Origin: Minisyncoccota bacterium | Lineage (GTDB): Bacteria > Patescibacteriota > Minisyncoccia > Phycocordibacterales > JABMNX01 | Length of the DNA stretch: 64,000 nt | NCBI GenBank assembly: GCA_026195275.1 | Contig: JAPHQU010000002.1 | Location: forward strand, 69,964 to 133,963 | Direction: 5' to 3' | In this document: piece by piece, positions 5,392 to 61,986 of the stretch | Layout: each line of letters starts with the position of its first letter | Numbering within the stretch: position 1 is the first letter of the stretch | The notes under the pieces: model-generated | What the model was told of the DNA's origin: nothing | Seen by the model: the letters and a program-made list of their open reading frames with translations, nothing else | Database searches by the model: none | Program-made: the position numbers and the translations under genes

Positions 5392-5522
5392 GTCGTACGC
5401 AGATAGCTCTCTAAGTAGAGAGTGTTTGTTCTTTTATAATCCAGTTCACATTCTTCACGTCTCTCTCGCATTCTCGGGAGATCAGACTTCAACGTTCAAG
5501 AGAAAAGGAAAGGAGAGCAACC

Positions 5523-10506: not shown

Positions 10507-10570
10507 ATACGCTCAATCATAGCAGATTAGACACAGCAGACAAAGAATACCAGACAAGAACTCACAAATG

Positions 10571-44677: not shown

Positions 44678-44749
44678 GGTTTTTATAAAAACCCTATGAC
44701 ACAACAAGACAGTGACCCGAGTATCAGTTTTATATGAGTTTCTCTGAGG

Positions 44750-46009
44750 CTAATTAACAAAAGTTAGAGCCTTTCCTACCTTTTCACCACGTCCCGTCCT
44801 TCCAATTCTGTGAATGTAATCATCAAATGTCTCAGGAAGCTCGTAGTTGATCACATGAGAGACGTTGCTGATATCCAGACCTCTTGCGGCGACATCTGTT
44901 GCAGTAAGGACTTGTATTTCACCATTTTTGAATTTCTTTAGAGACCGCTGTCTCTGTCCGTGGTTTTTGTTGCCGTGTATGGATTCGGCTTTAATTCCTA
45001 GTTTTGAAAGAGATTTACTTAGTTTCTCAACACCGTATTTTGTTCTTCCAAAGACGAGAACCTTACTAAACTCCGGATCTGAGAGAAACTTCTCTAATAT
45101 ATGTAGTTTATCCTTCCCGCCGATTCTAACTATATCCTGGTCAATATTTTTCGAGGTGGCTCGGGTTTTTACAGAAATGTTTATCGGGTCATTAAGAAAA
45201 TCTTTGATAAGCCTTTCGATATTTGACGACATTGTTGCTGAAAAGAAGATCGTATGTCTCTTTTCTGGCATCTTGTCCATGACAAAACGCATATCATTTA
45301 CGAATCCCATGTCGAGCATTCTATCAGCTTCATCAAGTACGATTGTGTTAAACGTATCAAGTTTAAGAACCTCTCTTTTTATTAGGTCCATGACTCTTCC
45401 TGGGGTGCCTATAACAAAGTGATTCTGTTTTCGTAAGCTGGTTATCTGTCTATTTATAGGAGTTCCTCCAACACATATGGTTGAAGATATACCCATCCCG
45501 CGCACAAATGATCGCAGTTCTTCTTCGATCTGAATAGCCAGCTCTCTTGTTGGAGTTAAAATTATGACGCGCTCATTTTTGTTTAGAGACACCTTATCAA
45601 TTAGCGGGATCAGAAAAGCTGCTGTCTTACCGGTCCCTGTGTTTGCCAGTCCAACAATATCTTCTCCATTAAGAATGTGGGGGATTGTCTCGTCCTGTAT
45701 GGGAGTAAGTAGTTTATAACCCCTGCCCAATATATTCTTTTTTAAGATGTCTACTATTTTTAGTTCAGAAAAAGAATTTTGGGGAACAAAATCGATCTCT
45801 TCTCCTGTTGTTGGGACTGCTTTATTAATGAAGTTAGACACGTCCATATTGACGCTTTTTTTAGCCGATCGTCTACTTCCTGCGCCAGTTCTCCTTCTGC
45901 CAGAAAAAGACCTTCCTTTTGAAGAGAAGTTTTTACCTCTACTGAGACTGTATTTTTTTGCAGGAGATTTAGAATTAACCCCAGAAGCCGTGCTTCTTGT
46001 TTTTTGCAT
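44750..46009 (-). CDS. DEAD-box ATP-dependent RNA helicase with RG/RS-rich N-terminal region
   Basis: Q motif, ANTGTGKTAAF (motif I), VLDEADRMLDMGF (DEAD), SAT, and HRIGRTGRG (motif VI). Confidence 0.9.
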   Translation of the reverse strand: MQKTRSTASGVNSKSPAKKYSLSRGKNFSSKGRSFSGRRRTGAGSRRSAKKSVNMDVSNFINKAVPTTGEEIDFVPQNSFSELKIVDILKKNILGRGYKLLTPIQDETIPHILNGEDIVGLANTGTGKTAAFLIPLIDKVSLNKNERVIILTPTRELAIQIEEELRSFVRGMGISSTICVGGTPINRQITSLRKQNHFVIGTPGRVMDLIKREVLKLDTFNTIVLDEADRMLDMGFVNDMRFVMDKMPEKRHTIFFSATMSSNIERLIKDFLNDPINISVKTRATSKNIDQDIVRIGGKDKLHILEKFLSDPEFSKVLVFGRTKYGVEKLSKSLSKLGIKAESIHGNKNHGQRQRSLKKFKNGEIQVLTATDVAARGLDISNVSHVINYELPETFDDYIHRIGRTGRGEKVGKALTFVN

Positions 46010-46273
46010 GATATGTAATTAGTTAGTTAGTGACTTGTTTAACAAGCCTGATATAGATATGAAAAAAATAAAGACCCCTGATTAAAGGGTCTATATCCGT
46101 ACCTTTAATGGTATGTATATAAATAACATGAAATGTGTATAAAGTCAATAATGCGTATATAACCAAACACTTTTCTATTCTGACTAGCTCCGCGTTTTGA
46201 GCCCCATTAGAACCCATATTTTGGAACTGGATCAGTTTGAGCTTGCGTGTATTCAGAACTATTGGGATTGGTA

Positions 46274-47443
46274 TCAATTAGAGCGGGTCAGGATTGGTTG
46301 ATCAATGTCTATCGCAGGTACTATGCCGTAGCTTGAAAGAGCGCCCTGTAAGTAGTGAAAAAACTCTGGACTAGGTGGAGGAAACTTTGGGTGCTGAATT
46401 ATTTTGCCGCACACTTCTCCGTGTTCTGCTTCGTGCTCAGTTTGATAATGGTAGGAGTAGTTGGTGAAGAATACAGCGTTCAAAGGGTATTCCTCTGGTG
46501 GTAGGTCTTTCAGTTTCCGATCAACGATAGATTTTACGTCCTTGATCCATTGTTTGTCGTCCGCGGGAACATCTGGGGTCGGAGGAGTGTTTACGTCAAT
46601 GAATACTGCGAATGGCACGTCCTTCGGATTTTGTTCAAGTGCCTCCTTGAACAATCGTTTTATTACGCGAGCAGAGTACAGTTTTTCTAAAGGTTGCAAT
46701 AAGCCAGTTTCGTGGAGTACACCACTTCTTTTCTTGCTCTTTGCTTCAACGGCGAGTACGGCTTTGGTTTCTCTATGTGTAGCGATAAACTCACAGTGCT
46801 TATTCTTGCTATTTTCGTCAGTGAACTCAATATCACAATCTAGTCGTGCAAATATTGCCGCGATTGCAATCTCGTACCGTGCACCTTGATAGTGTTCGCG
46901 TGTCTTTAGGCGATCCAGTAGTGAAGGTGGCAAGTTGCGCGTATGTATCAAGCTACACACATCAAAGGCGAGAAGTAACAAACTTTTTGAGTATCCGTCT
47001 GGCTTTGCTCCCCACACTTCGTCGCTGACACGTTCCGCTACCTTTTCGTTGCGCTCAATCCATTCACCAAGCTTCTCCAGACACAAAGATATAAAGTGTC
47101 GTTCCTCTTGAGGTAGTTCTGTTTGTGCACGGAACCAGTCAAGCCCGATTGTTTCTTTGAGTATTTGGATAATGAAGCTATGGAATGTCGTGTTGGTGGG
47201 AATATCTGCATATACTTTATTCCCAAGAGCAAACACTTTTTTACCTTTGAACACGATCGGCTTTACATAGTTGATGTGTATCCCTGCTTGCTTCAGGTAC
47301 TCTTGTCTGGCTACTACTTCTCTAAAGTGTTCAATAACTTCTGGCGGAATATCATTGCTTTGGTCTTTGTTCATACAGCATCTTTTATATTTTTTTCCAC
47401 TTCTACAGGGACAAGGTTGGTTTCTTCCAGTACGAGCATTCAT
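46274..47443 (-). CDS. SEC-C motif protein with possible PD-(D/E)XK-like nuclease core
   Basis: N-terminal PCPCRSGKKYKRCC is a SEC-C metal-binding motif. Downstream, DCDIEF...LAVEAKSKK resembles the D...(D/E)xK nuclease motifs (tentative). Confidence 0.55.
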   Translation of the reverse strand: MNARTGRNQPCPCRSGKKYKRCCMNKDQSNDIPPEVIEHFREVVARQEYLKQAGIHINYVKPIVFKGKKVFALGNKVYADIPTNTTFHSFIIQILKETIGLDWFRAQTELPQEERHFISLCLEKLGEWIERNEKVAERVSDEVWGAKPDGYSKSLLLLAFDVCSLIHTRNLPPSLLDRLKTREHYQGARYEIAIAAIFARLDCDIEFTDENSKNKHCEFIATHRETKAVLAVEAKSKKRSGVLHETGLLQPLEKLYSARVIKRLFKEALEQNPKDVPFAVFIDVNTPPTPDVPADDKQWIKDVKSIVDRKLKDLPPEEYPLNAVFFTNYSYHYQTEHEAEHGEVCGKIIQHPKFPPPSPEFFHYLQGALSSYGIVPAIDIDQPILTRSN

Positions 47444-47800
47444 AAGAGTATTTTATAACTTTTGAGTACTCAGCGCTCTTTATTGGTTTCAGAGAAAGAG
47501 GTATACTTGATTTACAACTGAATATTGAGCCCGTGAGGGCTAGCACCTAACCCTGTCGCTTCGGCGCAGGTATGGTGGGTTTCATAAACGCGGGAGTACA
47601 GATTGCACTCTTGAGAGAAGGTGTGATTGATGTGCCAGAATATCTCTCCTCGTGGCTTGAAGGAGACGAGCGCACCATAACAAAAGAAAAAATGGGACTG
47701 CTGGTGCGATAAGCAACATTCCATTGCGGGCAAATGGTCGCATATGGTCGCAAAATTGACACAGAGAGCGCACCAGTAGCATTTTCGCTATACTTTAGGT

Positions 47801-48280
47801 ATGGATACCTTTTCGTTATCAAACATACGAACTGCCCGTCAAAGCCAAGCCATTCAGTTTTGGATTGATGGAGGACGTAAGAGTAAGGCGGAGGCGCTTC
47901 GTAAAGCAGGATATAGCGAGGCGGTTGTTCGGCACCCCGAGCGTGTCTTTGGAAGTCCGAGCGTTCAACAAGAACTAGAACTGCGCGGGCTCGGCAGAGA
48001 CGGGTTCGGTATTCCTAAACCAATGCCAGCGGAAATATTGGTTGAGGAGGACATACTGCCCACGTCTCCTGTCTACTCGTTCAACCCGCAGGAGATACCA
48101 ACCGAACAATTGCAAGAACTCAAAGAAAAACTGCGTGCCATTGGTTATGAGCCAACCTCACCTCGTGCGACTACTGAACCAATACGCGCAACTCCAATGA
48201 CTTTGCGCAACAATCTTGGGTGTGCTGATGTGTTGGAAGTTTCTGCGGAAAAATCGTTTCCAAATATGTCGTCTATGTGA
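47801..48280 (+). CDS. HTH protein resembling phage terminase small subunit N-terminal DNA-binding domain
   Basis: QAIQFWIDGGRKSKAEALRKAGYSE resembles the terminase_2-type HTH (AGYSE...). The remainder is Pro/Glu-rich. Confidence 0.4.
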   Translation: MDTFSLSNIRTARQSQAIQFWIDGGRKSKAEALRKAGYSEAVVRHPERVFGSPSVQQELELRGLGRDGFGIPKPMPAEILVEEDILPTSPVYSFNPQEIPTEQLQELKEKLRAIGYEPTSPRATTEPIRATPMTLRNNLGCADVLEVSAEKSFPNMSSM

Positions 48281-48344
48281 GCCATTTTTTCTAGCCGCTA
48301 GGGCTGAAATGTGGTAAAATAAAGCCAACATATGCCTCAACGCT

Positions 48345-49910
48345 ATGAAAAAAGCCACAAAATCAACCAAAAAGAAAACAGAAAGTGCTGGACGATTTGA
48401 GGCACAACTTTTCAAAGCGGCAGACAAACTCCGAAAGAACATAGACGCGGCTGAGTACAAACACGTTGTACTCGGTCTTATTTTTCTGAAGTTCATATCA
48501 GACGCATTTGATGTGCACTACCAGAAACTTGCCTCGGGTAAGGGTGAATATGAGGGTGCCAACCCAGAGGATCAAGACGAATACAAAGCAGAAAACGTAT
48601 TTTGGGTACCGCCAGAAGCGCGGTGGGCACACCTTCATTCACGCGCAAAGTTGCCGAGTATCGGTAAGGATTTGGACGCGGCAATGGAGGCGATTGAGCG
48701 AGCCAACCCGACACTCAAGGGTATCCTCCCGAAAGAGTACGCAAAACCAAACTTGGACAAGGTAGCACTCGGTGGTTTGGTAGACCTTATTGCAGACGTT
48801 GCACTCGGCGAGGAAAGCGAAAAATCAAAAGACCTTATTGGACGTGTGTATGAGTACTTTCTCGGCGAGTTCGCTTCGCTTGAAGGCAAGAAGGGCGGGC
48901 AATTCTACACTCCTAGAAGCATTGTTGAACTTATGGTGCAAATGATAGAGCCAATGACGGGACGTGTGTACGACCCTGCGTGTGGTTCGGGTGGAATGTT
49001 TGTGATGAGCGAGAAGTTTGTGCTCGCACATCGCGGGCGTTTGGAAGACATTTCTATTTACGGACAAGAGAGCAACCACACCACCTACCGCCTTTGCCGT
49101 ATGAACCTCGCGCTTCGCGGAATAGATGGCTCGCAAGTGAAATGGAATAGCGAAGGGTCATTTCTCAAAGACGCACACCCTGACCTCAAAGCGGATTACA
49201 TTTTGGCAAATCCGCCTTTCAACCAAAACGACTGGGGCTGGGACATTCTCAGAAACGACGCTCGTTGGAAGTACGGTTTGCCGCCAGAAGGCAACGCAAA
49301 CTATGCGTGGCTTCAACATATGATCCACCACCTTTCTCCAAAAGGTGTAATGGCAACGGTACTTTCAAATGGTTCGCTTTCCTCCAACCAAGGTGGCGAA
49401 GGAGAACTGCGAAAGAAACTTGTGGAGGAGGATATGGTGGACTGTATCGTTGCGCTTCCAAACCAACTTTTCTACAACACAGGCATTCCTGCTTGTTTGT
49501 GGTTTATCTCACGTAAGCGCATTGGCAACGGCGACAGGAAACGCACAGGAGAAGTGCTATTTATAGACGCGTCGCAAATGGGGGCGCTGGTAGACCGAAC
49601 GCACAGAGAGTTTACCGAGGAGGACATCAAAAAGATTGCGGGCACGTATCACGAGTGGCGACAGAAAAACAACAAGTACAAGGACATCAAGGGCTTCTGC
49701 AAATCATCATCACTCGCGGAGATACAAAAGAACGGCTACGTGCTCACGGCAGGGCGCTATGTGGGTATTGCAGATGGCGCGAAAGACAGCGAGCCGTTTG
49801 AGGAGAAAATGACGCGGCTCACCAGTACCCTCAAGGAGCAAATGGAGCAGGAGCAGACCTTGAACGAGGAAATAAAGAAGCAACTGAAAAAAGTTGGATT
49901 TGAACTATGA
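48345..49910 (+). CDS. hsdM: Type I restriction-modification system methyltransferase subunit
   Basis: N-terminal LFKAADKLRKNIDAAEYKHVVLGLIFLKFISD, motif I DPACGSGGM and motif IV NPPFN. Confidence 0.92.
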   Translation: MKKATKSTKKKTESAGRFEAQLFKAADKLRKNIDAAEYKHVVLGLIFLKFISDAFDVHYQKLASGKGEYEGANPEDQDEYKAENVFWVPPEARWAHLHSRAKLPSIGKDLDAAMEAIERANPTLKGILPKEYAKPNLDKVALGGLVDLIADVALGEESEKSKDLIGRVYEYFLGEFASLEGKKGGQFYTPRSIVELMVQMIEPMTGRVYDPACGSGGMFVMSEKFVLAHRGRLEDISIYGQESNHTTYRLCRMNLALRGIDGSQVKWNSEGSFLKDAHPDLKADYILANPPFNQNDWGWDILRNDARWKYGLPPEGNANYAWLQHMIHHLSPKGVMATVLSNGSLSSNQGGEGELRKKLVEEDMVDCIVALPNQLFYNTGIPACLWFISRKRIGNGDRKRTGEVLFIDASQMGALVDRTHREFTEEDIKKIAGTYHEWRQKNNKYKDIKGFCKSSSLAEIQKNGYVLTAGRYVGIADGAKDSEPFEEKMTRLTSTLKEQMEQEQTLNEEIKKQLKKVGFEL

Positions 49911-50938
49911 GCGAAAAAATAACAACAGAAAATGTATTTGAGGTAGATGTTCCAGCATTGGCACTGGACAGCCGCTTTGGCAGTTTGGTATTTGAAAACG
50001 CCAACAAAAAACTCGGTAAGGCGCAAGCGTTTCTGAAAGAAGTGTACGATCTTGGCTATCAAGAACTTCTCAACGAAAGTGGTATAAATCAGGTTGGAAA
50101 TCTAACCAACAAACTGACGGAGCATTTGGAATGGCTTCGCAACTTTGATATTGGTACAGTTGCAAACGCAAAGCAGGAGCACGACAACTTTGAAAGTCGT
50201 ATTGACGGCTTCTATAACGATATTTACGAGCAGATACTGATGAGAACGCTCCCGTTCCTCCGAGAGGAGCGCCGTCGCGAAAACCCTGACCAAAAACAGT
50301 TGGATGAGGAGGTAAAGAAAGCAGTACAGGTACGCACTGAGCTTGAGGATGAACTAAAAGCAATACGCGAGGAAACTCAAAAAATCCGCACTGCAAATAA
50401 ACAAGTTGGTTCCGCTAAGGGTCAGAGGGCGGCAGTACAAATGGCGGCACACTTTGATGATGAAGTAGAACGCTATGCAACTCTCTCAAAGTATTGGCTT
50501 TGGGGCGTTGTAGGCGGATATGTCGCTATTGTTGCAGTTCTTGTTTGGCTCGGGTTTGTTACCGCCTCATATGTACATCAAATCGTCTCTTTGCCCGACA
50601 CCGTGGACACGAGTGGTATCTGGAGCGCTGTGATCTCAAAACTCGTTATCTTGGCGGCGCTATGGTATGGCTTATCGTTCGTTATCAAAAACTACAACGT
50701 GAACTCTCATTTGGCGGCAGTAAACCGACACCGCGCCGCAGTGGCACGAACTCTGGAGGACTTCATAGCGGTAGAACAACAGCAGGAAAATCCGCGCTTG
50801 TCGGAAGTGCTACAGCACGCTTCCGAAGCAATGTTCAAGAATGTGCCGATTGGTTTCGTCTCTAAGACAGAACGCGAACAAAGCAATCCCGTGCTTCAGA
50901 TAGTGAATGACCTGATCGGGATAAAGAACAACACATAG
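49907..50938 (+). CDS. Embedded gene X1: coiled-coil N-terminal domain plus 2-TM membrane protein, function unknown
   Basis: 343 aa. The start overlaps the hsdM stop (ATGA). TM helices are WLWGVVGGYVAIVAVLVWLGFV and SAVISKLVILAALWYGLSFVI. No motif recognised. Confidence 0.6.
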   Translation: MSEKITTENVFEVDVPALALDSRFGSLVFENANKKLGKAQAFLKEVYDLGYQELLNESGINQVGNLTNKLTEHLEWLRNFDIGTVANAKQEHDNFESRIDGFYNDIYEQILMRTLPFLREERRRENPDQKQLDEEVKKAVQVRTELEDELKAIREETQKIRTANKQVGSAKGQRAAVQMAAHFDDEVERYATLSKYWLWGVVGGYVAIVAVLVWLGFVTASYVHQIVSLPDTVDTSGIWSAVISKLVILAALWYGLSFVIKNYNVNSHLAAVNRHRAAVARTLEDFIAVEQQQENPRLSEVLQHASEAMFKNVPIGFVSKTEREQSNPVLQIVNDLIGIKNNT

Positions 50939-50941
50939 TAT

Positions 50942-51535
50942 ATGGAAATCGTTTATATTCTCACCAACCAAGCAATGCCCGACTACGTGAAGGTTGGGCG
51001 CACCAAAGACCTCCAGCAAAGGTTGAAAAGTTTGTATCGCACACCCGTGCCACTTCCTTTTGAGGTGTTCTATGCGTGCACTGTTGAGAACTCTATGGAA
51101 GTAGAGGCGTGGCTGTTTGAGATTTTTGACGATAGGCGGGTGAGCAAAGAGCGAGAGTTTTTTGAGATAGCGCCAGAGCGCGTTGCCGCGGCATTGCGTG
51201 CACGAGCGGTGCAGGAGGTAACCCCGAAGCAGACGTACACAGAGAACAAAGAGGACGAGGTGGCACTGGAAAAGGCACGCTCAAAACGCGACAAGTTCAA
51301 CTTCGCAATGGTGGGTATTCCTGCTGGTGCTGAACTTACCTTCAGTAGAGACGAGAATATAAGGGCGCGGGTAGTAGACAACCACAACATTGAATACAAC
51401 GGCAAGGTAACGAGTTTGTCTACCTCGGCACAGGAAATACTTGGCTACAACTATGGAGTGGCGGGCACGTTGTATTGGTCGTATGAAGGCGAAACTCTCC
51501 ACGCGCGGCGCGTGCGAATGGAGGAAGGAGAATGA
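50942..51535 (+). CDS. Embedded gene X2: T5orf172 (GIY-YIG-like) + DUF4357-like domain protein
   Basis: N-terminus IVYILTNQAMPDYVKVGRT...REFFE is T5orf172-like. The C-terminal part KFNFAMVGIPAGAELTF...SLSTSAQEILGY...WSYEG is DUF4357-like. This family is commonly found inside type I R-M loci. Confidence 0.65.
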   Translation: MEIVYILTNQAMPDYVKVGRTKDLQQRLKSLYRTPVPLPFEVFYACTVENSMEVEAWLFEIFDDRRVSKEREFFEIAPERVAAALRARAVQEVTPKQTYTENKEDEVALEKARSKRDKFNFAMVGIPAGAELTFSRDENIRARVVDNHNIEYNGKVTSLSTSAQEILGYNYGVAGTLYWSYEGETLHARRVRMEEGE

Positions 51536-52797
51536 ATATGAGCACGACGACACAATGGAAAAAAGGATTTTTATACGAGATCGCGACGGTAGTCGGGGGC
51601 TATGCATTCCGAGGTGAGGATTTTGGAAGTGAAGGAACTGCCGTCATAAAAATAAAAGACATTCAGCCGCCGTATGTTGATATTCAAAATGCCGAAAGGA
51701 TAGATCAACAGAAGTACAATCAACAAAAGATTGAGAAGTTCAAACTTTCAAAGGGAGATTGTTTAGTCGCTATGACTGGAGCGACGATAGGAAAGGTTGG
51801 AAAGATTTCGTATGACGAGGTTTCTTATCTGAACCAACGAGTAGCAAAGGTGGCGGAAAAGAGAGGTGTGGCGGATAAGAACTTTGTTTACTACGCGGTT
51901 TTAGGTAGTGATTTCCAGCGATACGTGAACACAACCTCATCTGGTAGCAGTGCTCAGCAAAACATTAGCGCCGATGATATAGGGCGTTTTCCTATTGTTT
52001 ATCCCATAGACATAAAAGATCAATGTACAATCGCGCAAGTTCTCATCAGTTTAGACAAAAAGATTGAGTTGCTACGGAAGCAAAACGAGACGCTGGAGGA
52101 AATGGCGAGGGCGATTTTCAACGCGTGGTTTGTGGAGTTCAACTTTCCAGATAAGGACGGTAAGCCATACAAAGCGTCTGGCGGGAAAATGGTAGACAGT
52201 GAATTTGGCGAAATCCCAGAGGAATGGCGCGTCGGTACTCTTGCCGAACTTATAGATCAGTTGAGTGAACGCATTGGCTCTGATGAGCAGTCAAAGTACA
52301 CGGTTATGTCTGCAGTAAACACAGGGCAACTCGTGCCTTCAAGTGAGTATTTTACTAAACAGGTTTTTAGTAAGAGCATTTCAAAATACATCAAAATCCA
52401 CCAAGGAGATTTTGCATACAATCCAGCACGTATCAACATCGGTTCTATTGGGAGATTGCGAGAACTTATCTTGGGAGCTGTTAGTCCTGTATATGTCGCG
52501 TTTCGCGCAAAAGAAGGCGCGGGAGCGTTTGTTGATTTCTTGATCCAGACGGCAAAAATGAAAAAACATATTGAACTCTATGCTAACGGGTCAGTGCGGC
52601 AAACACTTGACTATGACGGTTTCGGAGCATTTTCTTTTGCAGTTCCAACGGAAAATATCCTGAAAGAGTTTGACAAGATCACTGCTTCTCTACGGAATAT
52701 TTTTGAACGGAAGGAAGCCCAGATTGAGAACCTGCGAACTGTTCGGGATTTACTACTGCCAAAACTAATGAGCGGAGAGGTTCGCGTAAATACGTAA
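51532..52797 (+). CDS. hsdS: Type I restriction-modification system specificity subunit
   Basis: Two target-recognition halves separated by the conserved central helix region LLRKQNETLEEMARAIFNAWFVEF. C-terminal LRTVRDLLLPKLMSGEV. Start overlaps the X2 stop. Confidence 0.85.
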   Translation: MNMSTTTQWKKGFLYEIATVVGGYAFRGEDFGSEGTAVIKIKDIQPPYVDIQNAERIDQQKYNQQKIEKFKLSKGDCLVAMTGATIGKVGKISYDEVSYLNQRVAKVAEKRGVADKNFVYYAVLGSDFQRYVNTTSSGSSAQQNISADDIGRFPIVYPIDIKDQCTIAQVLISLDKKIELLRKQNETLEEMARAIFNAWFVEFNFPDKDGKPYKASGGKMVDSEFGEIPEEWRVGTLAELIDQLSERIGSDEQSKYTVMSAVNTGQLVPSSEYFTKQVFSKSISKYIKIHQGDFAYNPARINIGSIGRLRELILGAVSPVYVAFRAKEGAGAFVDFLIQTAKMKKHIELYANGSVRQTLDYDGFGAFSFAVPTENILKEFDKITASLRNIFERKEAQIENLRTVRDLLLPKLMSGEVRVNT

Positions 52798-52801
52798 ACA
52801 T

Positions 52802-53458
52802 ATGGAAAGCACAGTAGAAAAAATCACCGATACAGTATCCGACGCATTCAGAAGCATAGCCGAGATTGCAAAGGAGCGAATATTTACGCCAATGTATTTC
52901 TACTTCCTTGGTGCGTGGCTCATTACCAACTGGAAGTTTGTGTACACATTCTTTTTTGCTGATGAAAAACTGATACTTGAACACACTGGAATGTTGAAAG
53001 TTGAGTATCTGACGCAAATCTATCCTCACGACTGGACGGCGGTATTTCCGTTATTTGTTATACCGTTCGGGCTCGCGTATTTGGCAGTTTGGTGGTTCTC
53101 TGTCGTTTCCGAGAGGTTTTATAAAAAACACGAGGAGCACCAAATGAATAAGCGTGTGATCAAGCGCGAAGTTGAGTACCGCGAGAAGGTGGCATATTTC
53201 AAATCAGAGCGTGAAGTACGCGAGCAACAACTTGATCCGCAGGTGAAGTATGAGGAGAACAGGGACTACAACGAGCAAATAGACGAGAGCAATCCAGAGG
53301 TGGAAGTGAATGGAGTGCCTATGTTGCCAAGCGAAGTTTTGTATAAAACGGATTACCTTGCATATAAAACAGGGCTAGACGAATATACAGCAGAACTCGC
53401 ACAGAAGGGCGAGGATTTGGCAGTTCAGGCAGAAATAGACCGCCGACGCGGAAAATGA
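52802..53458 (+). CDS. Embedded gene X3: 2-TM membrane protein with charged C-terminal tail, function unknown
   Basis: 218 aa. Helices are [22 protein letters not shown] and [22 protein letters not shown]. Its stop overlaps the hsdR start (ATGA). Confidence 0.55.
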
Positions 53459-56400
53459 TTATGACCAAAATATACGAAAGCGATATAGAACTGTGGGTGA
53501 TAGAACTGCTGGAAAAGCAGGGTTATGTGTATCTATCTCCAGAGGAACAAGAAGCAGAGCGCCCCGATATGCGCGAGGTTGTTTTGCGTACGCGACTTAC
53601 AGAAGCGGTGGCGCGGCTCAACCCGCTAGTACCAAAGGACGCACAAGACGACGCGATACGGCAAGTAATAAACCTCTCGCCACAGCACTTGGTGGAAAGC
53701 AACGAGACATTCCAGAAAATGCTCACTGACGGAGTGAGCGTGGAGGTGGCGGGCGATCAGGGTGGCACACGTGGCGAAGTGGTGCACCTGATTGATTTTG
53801 CTAACCCAGAAAATAACGACTTGGTGGTAACCAATCAGTTCATTATTCCGTACGACCACACGAGTAAACGTCCAGACGTGGTGCTTTTAGTAAATGGACT
53901 ACCGCTTGCCGTGATTGAACTCAAAAATCCTGCGGACGAAAACGCGACGGTACACAAGGCGTTCACGCAACTCCAAAACTACAAAGACGCAGTGCCACAA
54001 CTCTTTACCTACAACGGCATTCTTGTTGCCTCTGACGGTTTGGATACTCGTGTCGGTTCACTCACGGCTCCGTGGGAGCGCTTTGTGGTGTGGCGTGCAC
54101 CTGAGGATAAAAAACACGGCGAGGATAAACGCCCGCAAATGGAAACGGTAGTTGAGGAAATGTTGAAACCCGCAGTGCTTCTGGATTTGATACGCAACTT
54201 CACGGTGTTTGAAAAGGTGAAAAAAGAGAACAAAGAGACAGGGCTGGTAGTGGTGGAAAGTGTAAAAAAGGTTGCGGCATACCACCAGTACTATGTGGTC
54301 AACAAGGCGATCAACTCAACGCTTCGCGCTACCGAGGAGCACGGAGAGCGCAAAATTGGTGTGGTGTGGCACACACAGGGATCGGGCAAATCCCTCTCTA
54401 TGGTGTTTTATACAGGCAAAGCGGTGCTTGCACTCAATAACCCGACGGTAGTGGTGATTACCGACCGCAACGATTTGGACGACCAGTTGTTTGATACATT
54501 TGCGGCGAGCCGCGGGCTTCTGCGCCAAGAGCCAGTACAGGCAGAAAGCCGAGCACATTTGAAAGAACTCTTACAGACCGCAGGAGGCGGGATTGTGTTT
54601 ACGACCATCCAAAAGTTTTTCCCCGAGGACGGCGGCGAGACATACGATCAACTGACCGACCGCAAAAACGTAGTGGTGATTGCAGACGAAGCGCACCGTA
54701 GCCAATACGGATTTGCCGCTCGTACGGTATTCAAAGATGACGAAGCGATTACCCGCTATGGCAACGCAAAATATTTGCGCGATGCACTTCCGAATGCCTC
54801 ATTCATTGGTTTTACGGGCACACCGATTGAAAGCACTGATCGCTCCACCCCTGCCGTGTTTGGTGAATACCTTGATGTGTACGACATTCAAGACGCAGTG
54901 CGCGATGGCGCTACTGTTCCTATCTACTACGAGAGCAGATTGGCAAAAGTACACCTGCCAGAGGAAAAAAGTGAGGAAATAGACGCAGACGTGGAAGCAG
55001 TGGCAGAAGGTTTGGAGTTCACCGCAAAGGAAAAAGCGAAGGCGAAGTGGGCGCAATTGGAAGCAATCATTGGCAACCAAGAACGCCTGAAAGAGATAGC
55101 GAAGGACTTGGTGGTGCACTTTGAAGCGCGACAGGAAGTGAACGTGGGCAAGGCAATGATTGTGGCGATGAGTAGACGCATTGCCGTTGATTTGTACCGC
55201 GAGATAGTGGCACTTCGCCCAGAGTGGTACAACGACGATTTGGAGAAAGGTGCAATCAAAGTTGTAATGACGGCGAACTCGTCAGACCCGAAGGAGTTTC
55301 AGCCACACCACACGAATAAAGAAGCACGACGACGACTTGCCGATCGTTTCAAAGACGCGGGAAGCGACCTCAAACTAGTTGTGGTGTGCGATATGTGGCT
55401 CACAGGATTTGATGTGCCGTCTTTGCACACAATGTACATAGACAAACTTATGCGCGGACACAATCTTATGCAGGCGATTGCCCGCGTGAACCGCGTCTTT
55501 AGAGATAAGGAAGGAGGTCTTATCGTGGACTACATTGGTTTTGCCGCCGACCTCCAGAAAGCACTCGCCGTGTATACGGGAAGCGGTGGTACAGGAAGCC
55601 CGACCGTAACTCAAGACAAGGCGGTGGAGATAATGCTGGAGAAATACGAAGTCGTGAAGCAAATGTTCCACGGCTTTGACTACCACCGTTACTTCACGCT
55701 TGATACTCGTGGCAAACTCGGGCTTATTTTGGAAGCGCAGGAGCACGTCTTGGCGCAAGACAATAAAGTACCCGCAGAGGGCGAAAAGAAGTCCCAGAGC
55801 CCTTCAGAGCGCTTTATACACGAGGTTACAGCCCTCTCTAAGGTCTTTGCCATTGCGGTGCCACACGAGGAGGCACTGGCGATACGCGACGAAGTGGCAT
55901 TTTTCCAAACAATCAAAGCCCGCTTGATCAAGTTTGACCCAGACCCGACCAACTGCCGCGAGGATATAGAGACGGCAATACGACAGATTGTAGATAAGGC
56001 AGTGGTTACCGAAGGCGTAGTGGATATTTTCCAAGTCGCGGGTATTCCAAAGCCAGACATTTCCGTGCTCTCGGACGAGTTCCTTGCAGAGGTGCAGGGA
56101 ATGAAGCACCAGAATGTCGCAATGGAACTTATGAAGCGGCTCCTCAATGACGAAATACGCTCACGATTGCGAAAGAACCTCATACAAGGAAAGAAGTTCT
56201 CAGAAATGCTCGGTAAGACCATCACGAAGTATCAGAACAACCTCCTCACTGCCGCCGAAGTCATACAAGAACTCATTGCGCTTGCGAAAGAATTACGCGG
56301 TGCAGATGAACGCGGTGAGGATTTGGGACTTTCTGACGATGAACTCTCGTTCTATGACGCATTGGCAAACAACGAAAGTGCTCGTGATGTAATGAACGAC

Positions 56401-56613
56401 GAGACACTTCGCGATCTTGCGCGAGTGCTGGTAGACAGGGTACGGGCGAGTGCCACGGTGGACTGGACGATACGCGAGAACGTAAAAGCAAAGTTGCGCG
56501 TCTTGGTAAAACGTACGCTCGCCAAGTACGGCTATCCACCAGACAAGCAGGCAATCGCTACGGAAACCGTGCTCAAACAGGCGGAACTTTTCGCTGATGA
56601 TTGGGCGAAATAA
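53455..56613 (+). CDS. hsdR: Type I restriction enzyme endonuclease/helicase subunit
   Basis: N-terminal nuclease domain, SF2 motifs ([16 protein letters not shown]) and a length of 1052 aa. Confidence 0.92.
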
Positions 56614-56619
56614 AGTTTT

Positions 56620-57366
56620 ATGAAAAAGAGAGAAAACAAAAAGGCGCTTCTACAAGCGCAGGAGAAAATGTATTTGTATCTGACTTCTCTTGCGTCAGAT
56701 CAGTCATTTCTCGCACGAGTAACAGAAATACGGGAAAGGTATGGAATACCCGAAGGTGGTTTTGAAAGTGATTTGAAGGACGAGTTTGAGTTTATAAACT
56801 CACTCCCCAAGGGAAACGAAGCGGATTTCCAAAAAGAAATATACGACCTTGCAGAGAGTTTCAATGCCTCTCTTGCGTGGCTCACGAATATTCGCGATTA
56901 CGTACTTTACAATGACTTCTTTTTTACGAAAGTTTCCCCTTTGGTTGAAATGGTTGATGTGCTCGGTCTTACAGACGAGATAGTAGAAATGGACGTAGAT
57001 TTGTATGAGGAATACGAAGTGGACGAAAACGCAGTCGTGCGGCGGGTACTCAACAATCTGACTAACAGTTATCCGCTTGCAATTTTTGTTTCGCCTTATG
57101 CAACAGGTCGCGACATAATAGATTTTATAAAAAAGAACAAAACTAGCATTGAAACTCTCCAGAACAAACACTGTGATAGTGATGTGCGGATTGGCAAGGT
57201 GAGAAAAAGAAAAGCGAACGTACAGGAGAGGGATTTGTTCATTTGTAACAACAAACACCTTTCTGCCAAGGTGCTAATGAGTAAAGTGAACGAGAAGTTT
57301 GGTACACAACTGGACTACGATTACATAAACAAAATCATTGCCAAAAAGTGCCCGCGAGGAAAATAA
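56620..57366 (+). CDS. Embedded/trailing gene X4: hypothetical acidic protein, function unknown
   Basis: 248-aa ORF starting 7 bp after the hsdR stop. No motif recognised. Confidence 0.5.
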   Translation: MKKRENKKALLQAQEKMYLYLTSLASDQSFLARVTEIRERYGIPEGGFESDLKDEFEFINSLPKGNEADFQKEIYDLAESFNASLAWLTNIRDYVLYNDFFFTKVSPLVEMVDVLGLTDEIVEMDVDLYEEYEVDENAVVRRVLNNLTNSYPLAIFVSPYATGRDIIDFIKKNKTSIETLQNKHCDSDVRIGKVRKRKANVQERDLFICNNKHLSAKVLMSKVNEKFGTQLDYDYINKIIAKKCPRGK

Positions 57367-57919
57367 GTGGGCTCACTTGTAGTCCTATATCACAAATACA
57401 TTTCCTCCTACTCTGGCTTCTAGGTCAGAGTTTTTCTTTGACCTGAACAATCAGCTCAGACGAGGACAGAACCTTCCCTCTGCCTCGGAAAAAACAATCA
57501 AACGGGAATAGTGAGAGGTTTTCAGATCACGCGGGCGGGAGAACCGCCCCCCTAATCTGAAAATCTCCTAGGAAGGTGTTGGAGGAAAGTTGGGACATTG
57601 GAAAAGAGAGGACGAACGGCGGGCTGACCTTTTGCCCAACACTGTCCATCTCTCTTTTGCTCCGATCCTTCTCTGAACTGTACATACCCACCTCTCCCTT
57701 TTGGGTAGGGTGCCCAACTCCCTAATGTCTTTAGGGAAAGCGGGAGATATGGAAAAGATTTTATGGATATACCAGACGAAAAAATCCAGAAACTCCGAGA
57801 GATATACCGTAAAGAATACGGGGTTGAAATCTCTGACGAGGAGGCAAAAGTACTCGGCGAATATCTCGTGAACCTTTTTCGTGCTGTATACAATGTTTGA
57901 AATCCTATAGAATAAACTT

Positions 57920-59662
57920 ATGCGTACACCACCGTCAGACCTCAAATATTTCCTCTATGCTCGCAAGTCCACGGAAAGCGAGGATAGACAGGCGGCTTCC
58001 ATTGAGGATCAGGTTTCCGAAATGAAGCGTTTGGCAGAGCGGTTGGGTATTCAGATTGCGGAAGTAATCACCGAAAGCCATTCAGCAAAGAAACCGAACA
58101 ATCGTCCCCAGTTTACAAAAATGATGGAGCGTATTCACGCAGGAGAAGCCAATGCAATCTTGTGTTGGAAACTCAACCGCCTTGCCCGCAATCCCATAGA
58201 CGGAGGTTTGGTGAGTTGGTCGCTTCAACAAGGAATAATCCAGCACATTCAGACCTTCGGCGGTGGTTTCAGTCCAGACGATAATGTGCTCCTTATGCAG
58301 GTTGAGTTTGGTATGGCAAACCAGTATGTGAAGGATTTGAGCGTGGACACTAAGCGAGGTATGCGTAAGAAGGCAGAGCGTGGCTGGTATCCTGCTGGCG
58401 TGCTTCCTGCGGGCTATGAGCACCGCCCAAGCGCAAGCAACACGGGTGAGGACGAGATTGTGCCGAATGATGATTTTTCACTGGTAAAGAACCTGTGGGG
58501 TAAGTTGCTCACGGGGCGCTATACGATAATGGACATAAAACGCGAGGGAGACAGAATAGGATTGCGTAATCGCAAGGGACAGAAATATTCAAAAAATAAC
58601 TATTATGCGATGTTTGCCAATGAGTTCTACGCTGGTTGGTTTTATTGGGTGGACGAAAATGGAGTACACCAGCGCGTCCACGGCAAACACAAGGCAATGA
58701 TTAGCGAGGAGGAGTTTAGGAAAGTGCGTATTTTCCTTGGCAACCAAGGCGGCAAGAATAGATTGGTACGGTACACGTTCCCATTCAGGGGGAAAATGGT
58801 GTGTGGCGAATGTGCACGAATGATTACCGCCGAGCAAAAGATACAGGCGCGGTGTACGAACTGTCGGCACAAGTTTTCAATCAAACACACGAACGTATGC
58901 CCGCAATGCGAGACGGTGCTACAAGATATGGATAGTCCGCACATTGTGGATCGTACCTATTACATCTGCGTTGGTGCTACCAAGAAAATTTGCTCACAGC
59001 GCGGTGCCGTAGAGCAGGGCGAACTTACGAAGCAAATAGACCAAATCCTTCAGAATGTCTCTATCCCCAAGAGTTTCCACGAGTGGGCTGTGGACGCAGT
59101 GAAGCACGTAACCGAAAAGGACGCGGTTGAGGATGGAGCGACGCTAAACGTAATGCGGAACCGTGAGAGCGACCTTGAACAGCAGTTGAACGAGGTAACA
59201 GTTATGCGTGCCCGTCAGGAGATAACCCCTGCACACTTCAGCAAGACAATGGCAAGGATTGAAAAAGACCTTACCGATATTCGCGGAGAGATTGGCAAAA
59301 TGCACAAAAGCAAGATTGACTGGGGGCACATAGCGAACCAGTACCTCACCTTTGCAGAGACAGCGCAGGAGCGCTTTGAGAATGGAGACACGGCGACCAG
59401 AAAACTGATACTGGAGTGTATTAGTCCGAACCTGCTTTTGAAGGACAAAAAACTAAGCGTTGTAATGCCAAAACCACTGTTGGGTGTACGCTCTGCCTTC
59501 AATGTGCTATCCACTGACGTGCTGGGGTTAGAACCAGAAAAAGCCCTTGCGGGGCAAGGACTTTTTCAACGTATTGAACCCTCAAATACAATCGGGCTCC
59601 GCCTAGTAGACGACGTTCGAACCTATTGCCTTAGTGTACAAGTTAATCTTTTTGGAATTTAA
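57920..59662 (+). CDS. Large serine recombinase (resolvase/integrase family)
   Basis: N-terminal catalytic domain YARKSTESEDRQ...NAILCWKLNRLARN. Then a recombinase domain and a zinc-ribbon (CGECARM...CTNCRH...CPQCE), with a coiled-coil C-terminus. Length 580 aa. Confidence 0.85.
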   Translation: MRTPPSDLKYFLYARKSTESEDRQAASIEDQVSEMKRLAERLGIQIAEVITESHSAKKPNNRPQFTKMMERIHAGEANAILCWKLNRLARNPIDGGLVSWSLQQGIIQHIQTFGGGFSPDDNVLLMQVEFGMANQYVKDLSVDTKRGMRKKAERGWYPAGVLPAGYEHRPSASNTGEDEIVPNDDFSLVKNLWGKLLTGRYTIMDIKREGDRIGLRNRKGQKYSKNNYYAMFANEFYAGWFYWVDENGVHQRVHGKHKAMISEEEFRKVRIFLGNQGGKNRLVRYTFPFRGKMVCGECARMITAEQKIQARCTNCRHKFSIKHTNVCPQCETVLQDMDSPHIVDRTYYICVGATKKICSQRGAVEQGELTKQIDQILQNVSIPKSFHEWAVDAVKHVTEKDAVEDGATLNVMRNRESDLEQQLNEVTVMRARQEITPAHFSKTMARIEKDLTDIRGEIGKMHKSKIDWGHIANQYLTFAETAQERFENGDTATRKLILECISPNLLLKDKKLSVVMPKPLLGVRSAFNVLSTDVLGLEPEKALAGQGLFQRIEPSNTIGLRLVDDVRTYCLSVQVNLFGI

Positions 59663-60191
59663 GCAAATCAGTTTTAGAAAACAATCTTCTGTCAGTTGAT
59701 TCTTTTATCATTCCAAATGATGGATTTTTACTGAAACCTATATACTCCACTTTCTTAGCTTTTGCTTTGATGACATATTTTATAGCAGGAATCAAATCTG
59801 TATCAGAACTAATTACTATCGCAGTGTCATACAAATTATCAACTGCACCTACAACTAAATCTACTGATAATTTAATATCAACACCTTTTTCTCTGATGCT
59901 GTTATTGTCGTACATTATTCGACCTCTTTTAATATCAAAATTTTCGGACTCCAGTCCTGCTAAGAATTTTTGTTGCCCTTTAACCATTTTCTCTCCTTTC
60001 TCTGTATTGTTAAAATTTTTAACTATGCCGATATAGTATCTTTTTGAAACAAGATTACGTTCACCAACAAGATGTTCGACAAAAGATGAGTAATCAAACT
60101 TCATTTCTCTTTCTGGCATCTCGGATTCCTTTAGTCTTTGGTAAGTATTTCCACCATCTATATAAATAGCAACTTTTTCTTTCTTAAACAT
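59643..60191 (-). CDS. NYN-domain (LabA-like) putative RNase
   Basis: KVAIYIDGGNTYQ N-terminal NYN motif and SSDTDLIPAI. It overlaps the recombinase 3' end by 20 bp in convergent orientation. Confidence 0.7.
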   Translation of the reverse strand: MFKKEKVAIYIDGGNTYQRLKESEMPEREMKFDYSSFVEHLVGERNLVSKRYYIGIVKNFNNTEKGEKMVKGQQKFLAGLESENFDIKRGRIMYDNNSIREKGVDIKLSVDLVVGAVDNLYDTAIVISSDTDLIPAIKYVIKAKAKKVEYIGFSKNPSFGMIKESTDRRLFSKTDLLKFQKD

Positions 60192-60215
60192 ATGTTTATT
60201 TTATCATAAACAAAA

Positions 60216-60239
60216 CCACTCCTGCCGAAGCAGGAGTGG
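60216..60239 (-). terminator. Rho-independent terminator downstream of tRNA-Asn
   Basis: ccactcctgc-cgaa-gcaggagtgg, then ttttgttt on the - strand. Confidence 0.65.
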
Positions 60240-60356
60240 TGCTGTTAGTACGTATATGATTACATAATTTATAAAATAAATCAAGAGGACTGTTGATATG
60301 TTTATTTGATAAATTAGTTGAGAATAGCTCTAAAAAATAAGGTTATTTTTACTCTG

Positions 60357-60429
60357 CTCCACGGACAGGGCTCGAACCTGTGACCCAGCGATTAACAGTC
60401 GCTTGCTCTACCAACTGAGCTACCGTGGA
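60357..60429 (-). tRNA. tRNA-Asn (anticodon GTT)
   Basis: Hand-folded cloverleaf: acceptor tccacgg/ccgtgga, D-arm gctc-agttggtag-agc, anticodon stem agcga/tcgct with loop ctGTTaa, and T-arm acagg-ttcgagc-cctgt. CCA is not encoded. Confidence 0.85.
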
Positions 60430-60439
60430 ATGTTTCAAC

Positions 60440-60468
60440 ATTTTACAAGAGAAGGAGAATATTGCAAT
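60440..60468 (-). promoter_or_regulatory. Putative promoter for tRNA-Asn (TTGCAA-17-TAAAAT)
   Basis: The - strand reads TTGCAAtattctccttctcttgTAAAATgttgaaacat followed by tRNA +1. Confidence 0.45.
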
Positions 60469-60558
60469 ACATAGGTTTTCACGATATGCTGTGTGTTCCG
60501 CGTGAAGCCAGACTTCGCGCGGATATTCATTTTAAAATCAATCAAAGACAATATTCAT

Positions 60559-61986
60559 ATGTCATTCATCAAGGAAGAGAAGACAAAAATCGTCGCAACA
60601 ATCGGTCCGGCAACTGAGAGCGAAGAGATGCTCACCAAACTCACGAAAGCAGGACTCGATGTGATGCGACTCAACTTCTCGCACGGTGACCACCAAGAGC
60701 ATCTTGGGCGTATTGTCGCGGCACGGAAGGTGTCAAAGAAGCTGGGGAAGACCGTGGCTATCCTGCAGGACCTTGCAGGACCCAAGATCCGTATCGGCGA
60801 GTTCTACCAAGAGCGCGTTATGCTTAAGAAAGGCAGTGTCTTTACACTCACAACGAAGAATGTTGTTGGCGACGAGACAAAAGTGTTTGTGAACTACAGA
60901 ACGCTTCCGAAGGAAGTGAAGAAGGGTGGCACCATTTTACTTGATGATGGAAAGAAGAAGCTCGAAGTTGTCGGCACAACAGCCGACTCTATCAAATGTA
61001 AGGTGATTGTTGGTGGAGAGACCAAGGGGCGACGTGGAGTGAACGTGCCCGGGGCGTATCTCAAGATCAGCTCACTTACCGCAAAAGATAAGAAGGACCT
61101 CGCATTTGGTATTAAACAAGGGGTCGACTTTGTCGCGCTTTCATTTGTGCGTCAACCGAAGGATGTTCTCGATCTTCGCAAGATCCTTGATAAGGAGAAA
61201 TCAGACGCGGCGATCATCGCAAAGATCGAGACTCAAGAGGCGGTAGATAATATTGATGAGATTATTGCACTTGCGGACGGGATTATGGTTGCGCGTGGTG
61301 ATCTTGCAATCGAGGTGCCGGCAGAAGATGTGCCGGTCATTCAGAAGATGATCGTGAAGAAATGCAACGAGCTCGGCAAGCCGGTTATTGTGGCAACACA
61401 GATGCTTGAGTCGATGATCCACTCACCGGTACCGACTCGCGCCGAGGTATCAGACGTCGCAAACTCGATCTTCGACGGGACGGACGCGATCATGCTCTCA
61501 GAAGAGACCACGCTCGGCGAGTACCCGCTTGAGGCAGTCTTGGTCATGAGCAGGATCGCACGGCGAGTTGAAGCACTCGCTAAGTGGCACCGCGAGATCA
61601 TGGTTCGCGAAGATGGTACCCAGAGTACGGTGGACACGATCTCAAGCTCAGCGGTTGATGTAGCTGACCGTGTGAAGGCGAAAGCCATCGTGGCGCTCAC
61701 CGAATCAGGCTCGACCGCGCGTATGGTCTCGCGTTTCAAACCAACTCAGCCGATTATTGTCATGAGTCCGAACGAGCGCGCGCGTACGAAGCTCTCACTC
61801 TCGTATGGGTGTTACCACGCACCGATTAAAGGTTTTACGTCGATCCGCGAGGTGACTAAGACAGTGAGCGTTTGGATGGCGAATAACAAACTTGCTAAAA
61901 AAGACGATAAGATCGTCATTGTTGCCGGTATTCCGTTTGGCAAGACAGGCGGTACGAACATGGTCTTTGTGCACAAGCTCTCGTAA
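60559..61986 (+). CDS. pyk: Pyruvate kinase
   Basis: KTKIVATIGPA...MRLNFSHG N-terminus and MVARGDLAIE. Start is at MSFIKEEK; the ORF opens at 60493. Confidence 0.9.
   Translation: MSFIKEEKTKIVATIGPATESEEMLTKLTKAGLDVMRLNFSHGDHQEHLGRIVAARKVSKKLGKTVAILQDLAGPKIRIGEFYQERVMLKKGSVFTLTTKNVVGDETKVFVNYRTLPKEVKKGGTILLDDGKKKLEVVGTTADSIKCKVIVGGETKGRRGVNVPGAYLKISSLTAKDKKDLAFGIKQGVDFVALSFVRQPKDVLDLRKILDKEKSDAAIIAKIETQEAVDNIDEIIALADGIMVARGDLAIEVPAEDVPVIQKMIVKKCNELGKPVIVATQMLESMIHSPVPTRAEVSDVANSIFDGTDAIMLSEETTLGEYPLEAVLVMSRIARRVEALAKWHREIMVREDGTQSTVDTISSSAVDVADRVKAKAIVALTESGSTARMVSRFKPTQPIIVMSPNERARTKLSLSYGCYHAPIKGFTSIREVTKTVSVWMANNKLAKKDDKIVIVAGIPFGKTGGTNMVFVHKLS

Follow-up and report, generated by a model that had tools for sequence, protein, structure and literature searches.

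Genes between the DEAD-box helicase gene and tRNA-Asn

The 64,000-nucleotide stretch of DNA analysed here (the window, to whose numbering coordinates refer unless given for a relative) comes from a metagenome-assembled genome of the Patescibacteria (Candidate Phyla Radiation, CPR), with proteins publicly available as MCW9054627-46 under the name 'Candidatus Pacebacteria bacterium'. Between a DEAD-box helicase gene and a tRNA-Asn gene it holds approximately 14.2 kb of accessory DNA (46152-60355), comprising a type I restriction-modification (R-M) operon with additional genes set between its hsd genes, a large serine recombinase (LSR) and genes for a SEC-C-motif protein and a NYN-domain protein. 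Domains and families were assigned using Pfam, NCBIfam, PHROGs, PADLOC, Rfam, ARAGORN and PDB sequences, and DNA was compared with that of relatives (labelled L002-L181) by blastn. An open reading frame (ORF) map, a tRNA scan and profile searches placed the genes where an earlier note on this DNA had located them:

46274-47443, minus strand: SEC-C-motif protein of 389 aa (Pfam SEC-C 3.5e-8, residues 7-25 only; C-terminal domain uncharacterised)
47801-48280, plus strand: orf159, first gene of the operon
48345-49910, plus strand: HsdM, methyltransferase subunit (Pfam N6_Mtase 6.7e-109, HsdM_N)
49907-50938, plus strand: orf343, in the slot between hsdM and hsdS (two transmembrane helices predicted from hydropathy, residues 195-227 and 238-261)
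50942-51535, plus strand: T5orf172/GIY-YIG-type protein, PDC-S57 defence candidate, in the same slot (Pfam T5orf172 9.9e-17)
51532-52797, plus strand: HsdS, specificity subunit (Pfam Methylase_S 1.3e-13)
52802-53458, plus strand: orf218, membrane protein in the slot between hsdS and hsdR (predicted transmembrane segment 78-103; phrog_4780 5e-9)
53455-56613, plus strand: HsdR, restriction subunit (Pfam HSDR_N, SWI2_SNF2, T1R_D3-like and T1RH-like_C, to 2.8e-132)
56620-57366, plus strand: orf248
57763-57900, plus strand: 45-aa ORF, partner of the LSR clade (annotated as MCW9054639.1)
57920-59662, plus strand: LSR, an integrase of 580 aa (Pfam Resolvase and Recombinase)
59643-60191, minus strand: NYN-domain protein, defence candidate HEC-09 (Pfam NYN 2e-17; PADLOC HEC-09 2.5e-17)
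60356-60429, minus strand: intact tRNA-Asn (GTT), its 3' end facing the island (ARAGORN; Rfam tRNA 68.8 bits)

HsdM, HsdS and HsdR are all full length and are encoded together as a complete type I R-M set, with the gene order orf159-hsdM-(orf343, PDC-S57)-hsdS-orf218-hsdR-orf248. From hsdM to orf248 neighbouring coding regions overlap by 4 nt or lie 3-6 nt apart, and orf159 lies 64 nt upstream of hsdM, a spacing from which orf159 to orf248 may be read as one eight-gene operon.

The earlier note had judged by eye that the block is richer in AT than the flanking core, and computation bears this out, with a GC content of 0.466 for 46152-60355 against 0.507 for the core (standard deviation of 2-kb windows 0.016). 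The GC and tetranucleotide comparison that it had proposed for 46-60.4 kb likewise returned a deviant region, tetranucleotide distance reaching z 3.2-7.2 in every 2-kb window of 44001-61000 and staying at z<1 on either side. Composition within the region is heterogeneous: hsdM, hsdR and the LSR gene have GC contents of 0.49-0.51 and hsdS, orf218, orf248 and the SEC-C gene of 0.41-0.45, the strongest outliers being the NYN gene (0.308) and the DEAD-box helicase gene (0.397; 0.36 at third codon positions, GC3). Among the ORFs of 46-60.4 kb no relaxase, coupling protein or type IV secretion gene was detected with Pfam, no ORF of the block matched a terminase, capsid, portal or tail family in Pfam or PHROGs, and the DNA of the island had no match in phage or plasmid collections.

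The large serine recombinase and tRNA 3' ends

The recombinase has a Resolvase catalytic domain (PF00239, 1.2e-18, residues 11-155) with the serine motif Y-x-R-x-S present as YARKS at residues 13-17, followed by a Recombinase domain (PF07508, residues 195-269, 7.7e-6; 26.5 bits, cutoff 21.1). Its ORF is full length and the catalytic motif and domains are intact. It matched PHROG 95 'integrase' at 6e-52, and its best NCBIfam model was CcrB-like, below cutoff. No match was obtained to PF13408, a domain carried by several of its homologues, although CxxC pairs are present together with weak zinc-ribbon matches (HypA, Zn_Ribbon_TF; residues 264-339). This LSR clade was absent from IMG/VR (best identity 25%), and no close relative was found in phage or plasmid collections. 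Homologues of the 45-aa ORF lie upstream of LSR genes in L084 (82%), L087-90 (62%) and L086 (51%), a conserved pairing that makes the small protein a candidate directionality factor or regulator. Among distant relatives of the LSR, one from Lutibacter (L179) sits in a conjugative element. On two further CPR contigs, distant LSR genes (26-29%; L030 7316-8992 and L025 4-1293) precede a pyk gene of like orientation by 1-1.4 kb, and no tRNA was detected between LSR and pyk in either.

At four independent loci in relatives, the LSR gene terminates within the 3' end of a tRNA gene and in antisense to it, the tRNA being tRNA-Asn in three and tRNA-Tyr in one. In L084/85, whose LSR is 88% identical to that of the window, the LSR gene (3725-5440) and tRNA-Asn (5398-5475, opposite strand) overlap by 43 nt. 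In L087-90 (LSR 53%) the LSR gene spans 10001-11716 and tRNA-Asn 11704-11776, followed by HPF-fmt-def; in L172/173 (LSR 25%) the corresponding positions are 4439-6043 and 4406-4480. In L180 (LSR 49%) the ORF at 10001-11791 contains the whole of tRNA-Tyr (11671-11754) on the opposite strand. In four lineages with different flanks, an LSR gene thus placed at the border of accessory DNA and running antisense into a tRNA 3' end bears the signature of site-specific integration there. A type I R-M operon lies upstream of the LSR in L086, L087-90, L171 and L172; that of L086 (LSR 53%) is distant (HsdM 26%), and no tRNA was found on that contig. The earlier note had regarded the locus as a typical integrative-element layout, a view strengthened by these LSRs of the same family ending in tRNA 3' ends, two of the loci (L087-90 and L172/173) also carrying type I R-M. 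The recombinase, which it had placed at the tRNA-proximal end, does not adjoin the tRNA gene, a stretch of 694 nt with the NYN gene lying between the two. The tRNA-Tyr locus carries Prim-Pol, DndB, Vsr and C5-methylase cargo and adjoins ClpB.

Two short features lie at the right end of the LSR module and past the 3' end of the tRNA gene:

59597-59601, plus strand: CTCCG, the right-hand limit of the LSR module, at which L084 homology stops (57761-59601 corresponds to L084 3566-5406)
60216-60239, minus strand: GC-rich hairpin with a T-run after tRNA-Asn, terminator-like, read from the sequence

CTCCG is also the last 5 nt of tRNA-Asn in L084. Since the shared CTCCG ends both the LSR module and the L084 tRNA-Asn, the module end corresponds to the extreme tRNA 3' end. 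In the window this junction is followed by 754 nt, which hold the NYN gene and the terminator-like hairpin of the tRNA, and then by the real tRNA, also beginning GCTCC. The position of NYN between element end and tRNA therefore points to tandem accretion at the same site or to insertion into a tRNA-like secondary site, and two orders of events are conceivable: either the NYN cassette already lay beside the tRNA when the LSR element arrived and integrated at the far, tRNA-like junction of that cassette, or the NYN gene is the later arrival.

At the left end, the DNA shared with L171 begins at 47495, which is 51 nt from the start codon of the SEC-C gene. Because of this start, and because the homologue of the SEC-C protein stands in a different defence context (see below), an element of about 12.1 kb (approximately 4745x-59601) with the SEC-C gene outside it is favoured. 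The earlier note had called the left boundary uncertain and considered 47.45-47.8 kb as one alternative; the start of L171 homology fits that alternative, with the exact ends still unproven.

The same note had seen no direct repeat of the tRNA 3' end, and a search by seeds, with up to three mismatches and by local alignment agreed: no copy of the tRNA-Asn 3' end was found elsewhere in the window at <=3 mismatches or by exact seeds, and Smith-Waterman alignment with three tRNA-Asn sequences gave no repeat above the shuffle null. Nor was a tRNA repeat found at the distal end of the L172 island. The presumed P arm (59557-59600) was searched for in inverted orientation at either candidate left end, and in L172, and such a copy was rejected (p 0.07-0.8). 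A pseudo-tRNA after the junction (59602-59640) was retained at most as a weak hint, having only TCGAACCT and the CTCCG core in common with the tRNA and no Rfam tRNA match in a search of 201 nt. That no tRNA repeat was found agrees with a serine integrase, since such enzymes can have a short common core, which in a serine-integrase prophage can be 8 bp (PMC9303363).

A mosaic of exchangeable modules

The R-M module (47495-57752) is common to the window and L171, and the LSR module (to 59601) to the window and L084. DNA matches to L171 at 77-85% cover 47495-47575 (82%, L171 1885-1966), 47635-49911, 52051-56614 and 57430-57752. At the protein level HsdM is 97% and HsdR 96% identical to the L171 counterparts, orf218 is 93% identical to a 218-aa gene in the same position, and orf159 has a 70% homologue directly upstream of hsdM, yet the LSR of L171 aligns with that of the window at 29% over 115 aa only. 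HsdR is 75-77% identical to those of L087-90 and L172. The matches to L084 (56575-57390 and 57761-59601) take in orf248, the 45-aa ORF and the LSR gene, and no R-M operon was seen in the 3.7 kb upstream of the L084 LSR. The gene orf248, which has a 55% homologue upstream of the 88% LSR of L084/85 and is absent from L171, travels with the LSR module.

The contents of the slots differ as well. Between hsdM and hsdS, L171 carries PD-T7-4 and HEC-05 (GmrSD) where the window has orf343 and PDC-S57, and the slot between hsdS and hsdR is occupied by Pycsar in L087 and by PDC-S19 in L172. HsdS residues 1-172 have diverged from L171 whereas residues 173-421 are highly similar, DNA homology resuming at 52051; the swapped segment thus runs from the hsdM stop codon into hsdS as far as its conserved central region, which means that target recognition domain 1 was exchanged too. 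The earlier note had described an island of about 14 kb beside tRNA-Asn, and an island is indeed present, although not as one homogeneous element, being a mosaic of R-M, LSR, SEC-C and NYN parts.

The site itself is bordered by the following features:

44750-46009, minus strand: DEAD-box RNA helicase, left flank (Pfam DEAD and Helicase_C)
46010-46151, minus strand: conserved DNA upstream of the DEAD-box gene (blastn 77% to L081 through 46151; 74% to L082 over 46023-46105)
60493-61986, plus strand: pyk, pyruvate kinase, core gene of the right flank (Pfam PK, PK_C)

Since the DEAD-box gene and the 142 nt upstream of it are 77% identical to L081, where the next gene is different, the variable region starts at or after 46152. 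On the right, the adjacency of tRNA-Asn (minus) and pyk (plus) is kept in L002, L005, L008, L023 and L029, and pyk-DUF167-HPF-fmt synteny in many CPR contigs. In L082/83 (Pacebacteria, GCA_023135835.1; DEAD 69%) the order DEAD (minus), tRNA-Asn (minus) and DUF167-HPF is found, with the genes oriented to one another as in the window; the space between the DEAD 5' end and the tRNA-Asn 3' end is filled not by this block but by a MacAB-type efflux operon of 4.3 kb. L082/83 do not offer a clean empty site, but the order kept there shows the slot between DEAD and tRNA-Asn to be ancestral and its content replaceable. In L023 and L029 tRNA-Asn and pyk occur with neither LSR nor R-M. The empty site envisaged by the earlier note, with the DEAD-box gene directly beside tRNA-Asn, was thus not recovered, but the block is absent from the site in L082/83, L023 and L029, and synteny of the whole block across all relatives with matching composition, named in the note as refuting the island, does not hold. 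The contigs of the three closest relatives with tRNA-Asn and pyk break off 0-176 nt past the 3' end of the tRNA (L005 1-73, L008 15-88, L002 176-248), the point at which the island begins in the window. Such contig breaks fit strain-variable insertions that disrupt assembly at the tRNA-Asn site.

Origin of the block and its relation to known elements

The DNA from upstream of the DEAD-box gene to tRNA-Asn (approximately 46152-60355) is in our judgement probably horizontally acquired, mosaic defence DNA around an element of about 12 kb driven by a tRNA-Asn-aimed LSR. Gene content, composition, the sharing of modules and the overlap of LSR and tRNA genes in relatives are the observations behind this reading, from which the crossover position, present-day mobility, the order of events and the roles of unnamed genes are proposed. 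An LSR clade common in Patescibacteria would integrate into tRNA genes at their 3' ends, here into tRNA-Asn, through recombination between an attP where the LSR gene itself ends and an attB within the final tRNA nucleotides (the GCTCC region), with the 45-aa partner of the LSR probably acting as directionality factor or regulator. The common core would be a few bp, so that no long direct repeat would be left behind, which would explain the failure of att-repeat searches at such islands. Once in place, HsdMS would methylate host DNA and HsdR would cut invading DNA that lacks this methylation. The GIY-YIG and NYN nucleases and the membrane proteins embedded in the operon would be additional candidate effectors against phages, the inter-hsd slots holding exchangeable defence genes. 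A tentative joint reading, which we find plausible but place somewhat short of probable, extends this: a Patescibacteria-wide LSR clade targets extreme tRNA 3' ends (Asn, Tyr), its ORF running antisense into the tRNA so that integration and excision rewrite the integrase C-terminus; it ferries a type I R-M 'chassis' with inter-subunit slots and an integrase module that undergo exchange independently; and two such events are stacked at the tRNA-Asn of the window.

Several points weigh against the preferred reading. The relatives are metagenomic contigs of uncertain taxonomy. In a scan of genome representatives with pyk the nearest species was 69% identical and no same-species empty site was found, and the best comparison for the slot (L082/83) is 69% identical in DEAD and carries other genes there. 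The GC contents of hsdM, hsdR and the LSR gene are near the core value. The LSR gene does not abut tRNA-Asn in the window, neither an att repeat nor P/P' arm symmetry was found, leaving the exact ends unproven, and the resemblance of 59602-59640 to a tRNA 3' half is loose and not above the shuffle null, a weak hint at best. L172 carries primase and HTH_17 (excisionase-like) genes, both lacking from the window element, which may as a consequence be non-autonomous or fixed. Finally, a relative of the SEC-C protein (P0363) and one of the LSR (P0373), both at >=90% identity, are each encoded by a Logan contig 8,045 nt in length; P0363 was called from Met24, and thus lacks the SEC-C motif, and P0373 ends in ...IGLRG. 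Were both genes on one such contig, which is possible, the SEC-C gene would be a companion of the LSR and the left end would move to 46.15-46.27 kb.

Among the alternatives, the one with the most weight, although in our view unlikely, is a fixed variable hotspot in which the slot gains defence genes by homologous recombination through the flanking core (for example by natural transformation) and the LSR is decayed or domesticated. Such a history would agree with the missing att sites, with the separation of LSR and tRNA by NYN, with an LSR C-terminus that differs from L084 after residue 561, with the lack of the HTH_17 and primase genes of L172, with the shuffling of modules independently of the LSR and with a DEAD-box gene that itself looks replaced. 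It is harder to square with a full-length LSR ORF with intact catalytic motif and domains, with conservation of the 45-aa partner and above all with the junction of LSR antisense into tRNA in four lineages with different flanks, which is hard to obtain without site-specific integration. The compositional anomaly raises a different question, as it begins at the ApbE/DEAD junction, reaches z 4.7-7.2 for 44-47 kb and covers a DEAD-box gene of low GC and GC3, all of which would be expected if a single larger island of approximately 15.7 kb (44.7-60.4 kb) included that gene as cargo. We consider this improbable, since L082/83, which lack the island, keep DEAD (minus) facing the 3' end of tRNA-Asn, followed by DUF167-HPF, the DEAD homologues are all CPR proteins (60-83% identity), and DEAD with its upstream region is kept in L081 beside different neighbours. 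The L081 contig has a GC content of 0.34 and is 77% identical in DNA to the DEAD-box gene, suggesting allelic replacement from a low-GC relative, which more likely accounts for the composition of this gene than a larger island does. The earlier label of a housekeeping flank is accordingly upheld by synteny but not by composition, the anomaly extending over the gene.

The PHROG integrase match of the LSR and the several small ORFs of unknown function could also be taken for the remains of a prophage or phage satellite. This is very improbable given that none of the ORFs matched a terminase, capsid, portal or tail family in Pfam or PHROGs, that the DNA is unmatched in phage and plasmid collections and that the LSR clade is absent from IMG/VR. 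Least credible of all, and scarcely worth entertaining, is that the LSR serves as a phase-variation invertase for type I R-M (an hsdS shufflon) and not as an integrase: its constant linkage to type I R-M operons on several contigs would suit such a role, but hsdS is single, has no silent copies and is neither interrupted nor flanked by inverted repeats, the linked LSRs are mutually unrelated (29% over 115 aa) and lie at the element edge, overlapping tRNA, and the protein is a 580-aa LSR of integrase type as opposed to a small invertase.

As a defence island beside a tRNA gene, made up of known classes, the locus is ordinary in kind, the pairing of integrase and target being less familiar. Most characterised serine integrases insert within protein-coding genes or between genes, and targeting of a tRNA 3' end with antisense reading is unusual among them. 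LSR-driven elements (phiC31, Bxb1; SCCmec CcrAB; Tn5397 TndX and Tn4451 TnpX) resemble that of the window in the Resolvase and Recombinase domains, with putative Cys-rich zinc-ribbon motifs, in an LSR at the element edge, in having no long att repeat and in a small partner as possible directionality factor. The window element differs in its CPR host and in cargo consisting of defence genes only, without phage, conjugation or resistance genes, and its LSR clade in ending antisense inside tRNA genes (Asn, Tyr). Tyrosine-integrase islands beside tRNA genes, the classical pathogenicity and defence islands, share with it an integrase near the tRNA 3' end, deviant composition, patchy distribution and defence cargo, whereas here the integrase is of the serine family and no duplicated tRNA 3' segment is present. 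In E. coli, type I R-M operons have been described that harbour defence systems, with a small regulator encoded by the first ORF binding direct repeats (PMC12255303). As in the operon RptR-hsdM-hsdS-DarTG2-hsdR of enteropathogenic E. coli (EPEC; PMC12255303) and in PrrC-type insertions, the window has extra genes between hsd genes in one packed operon; it also has a small first ORF preceded by direct repeats, and the slots of relatives hold PD-T7-4, HEC-05, Pycsar and PDC-S19. It differs from the EPEC operon in carrying PDC-S57 and uncharacterised membrane proteins, in an orf159 for which no similarity to known regulator families was detected and in the location of the operon on an LSR element.

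Mobile elements and defence islands of CPR bacteria are poorly charted, and this locus with its relatives shows exchange among these small genomes of type I R-M operons, with plug-in defence genes, on LSR elements directed at tRNA-Asn. By 'guilt by embedding', orf343, orf218, orf248 and the SEC-C protein are flagged as defence candidates. The candidate attB (the tRNA-Asn 3' end) and an integrase with its 45-aa partner are candidates for testing as a genetic tool; if active, such integrases would offer a natural means of site-specific integration in CPR bacteria, whose genetic manipulation is difficult.

Embedded genes, non-coding features and flanking cassettes

Three non-coding features accompany the operon:

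47495-47580, plus strand: non-coding DNA at the left end of the stretch shared with L171, with two tetraloop hairpins (GUGA and UUCG loops)
47734-47752, plus strand: tandem of two copies of ATGGTCGCA upstream of orf159, exact copies at 47734 and 47744
57430-57752, plus strand: conserved non-coding region of 323 nt between orf248 and the 45-aa ORF, 77% identical to L171 14154-14477

Both copies of ATGGTCGCA are kept in L171, at 3760 and 3770, and the tandem may be operator-like, by analogy with the direct repeats of RptR-controlled type I R-M islands. In L171 four additional small ORFs lie between the counterpart of 47495-47580 (L171 1885-1966) and the orf159 promoter region. orf159, possibly a regulator, had been labelled terminase-small-like with a helix-turn-helix, a designation for which no support was obtained, as no family was matched in Pfam, NCBIfam, PHROGs or PDB sequences. 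Within the slot that follows, the start of orf343 overlaps the hsdM stop by 4 nt; its PADLOC matches are weak, it has no homologue in L171 and it is a candidate effector. The adjacent PDC-S57 protein, named 'GIY-YIG nuclease family protein' by NCBI, matched the PADLOC profile over its full length (1.8e-67, residues 2-195 of 197), a profile whose defence role is predicted. Inside 57430-57752 a 53-nt hairpin (57515-57567, plus strand; -29.5 kcal/mol) shows one compensatory change from T:A to C:G and two G:U-compatible changes relative to L171, and no Rfam family was matched by it. The region as a whole is kept in L171 although the adjacent LSR genes are unrelated.

An Rfam scan of 44-61 kb returned the tRNA alone, matches to the S15 leader and the hammerhead falling below the gathering score. 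The S15-leader match, at the start of pyk (60494-60615, plus strand), scored 24 bits (E 0.064; gathering score 39.5) and is probably due to chance. At the left flank, the DEAD-box protein matched NCBIfam RNA-helicase models below cutoff, CshA being best and then RhlE. A further ORF, 'orf84' (46023-46277), overlaps the conserved region upstream of the DEAD-box gene, is absent from the public annotation and is probably not a gene.

The SEC-C protein has a 76% homologue in L091, which lies beside a TaqI-like restriction enzyme and a LexA-methyltransferase fusion with no other island gene nearby, favouring the view that the SEC-C gene is a separate cassette found in defence contexts. The two L091 neighbours occupy 3077-5287, the fusion being a 507-aa protein that joins LexA DNA-binding, S24 peptidase and N6/N4 DNA methyltransferase domains. 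The NYN gene lies outside the homology to L084 and behaves as a separate cassette between the LSR module and tRNA-Asn. In L181 (DEAD 73%) neither a tRNA nor a homologue of the window NYN gene was found. A 98% relative of the NYN protein (P0376) is encoded on a contig of 88,811 nt.

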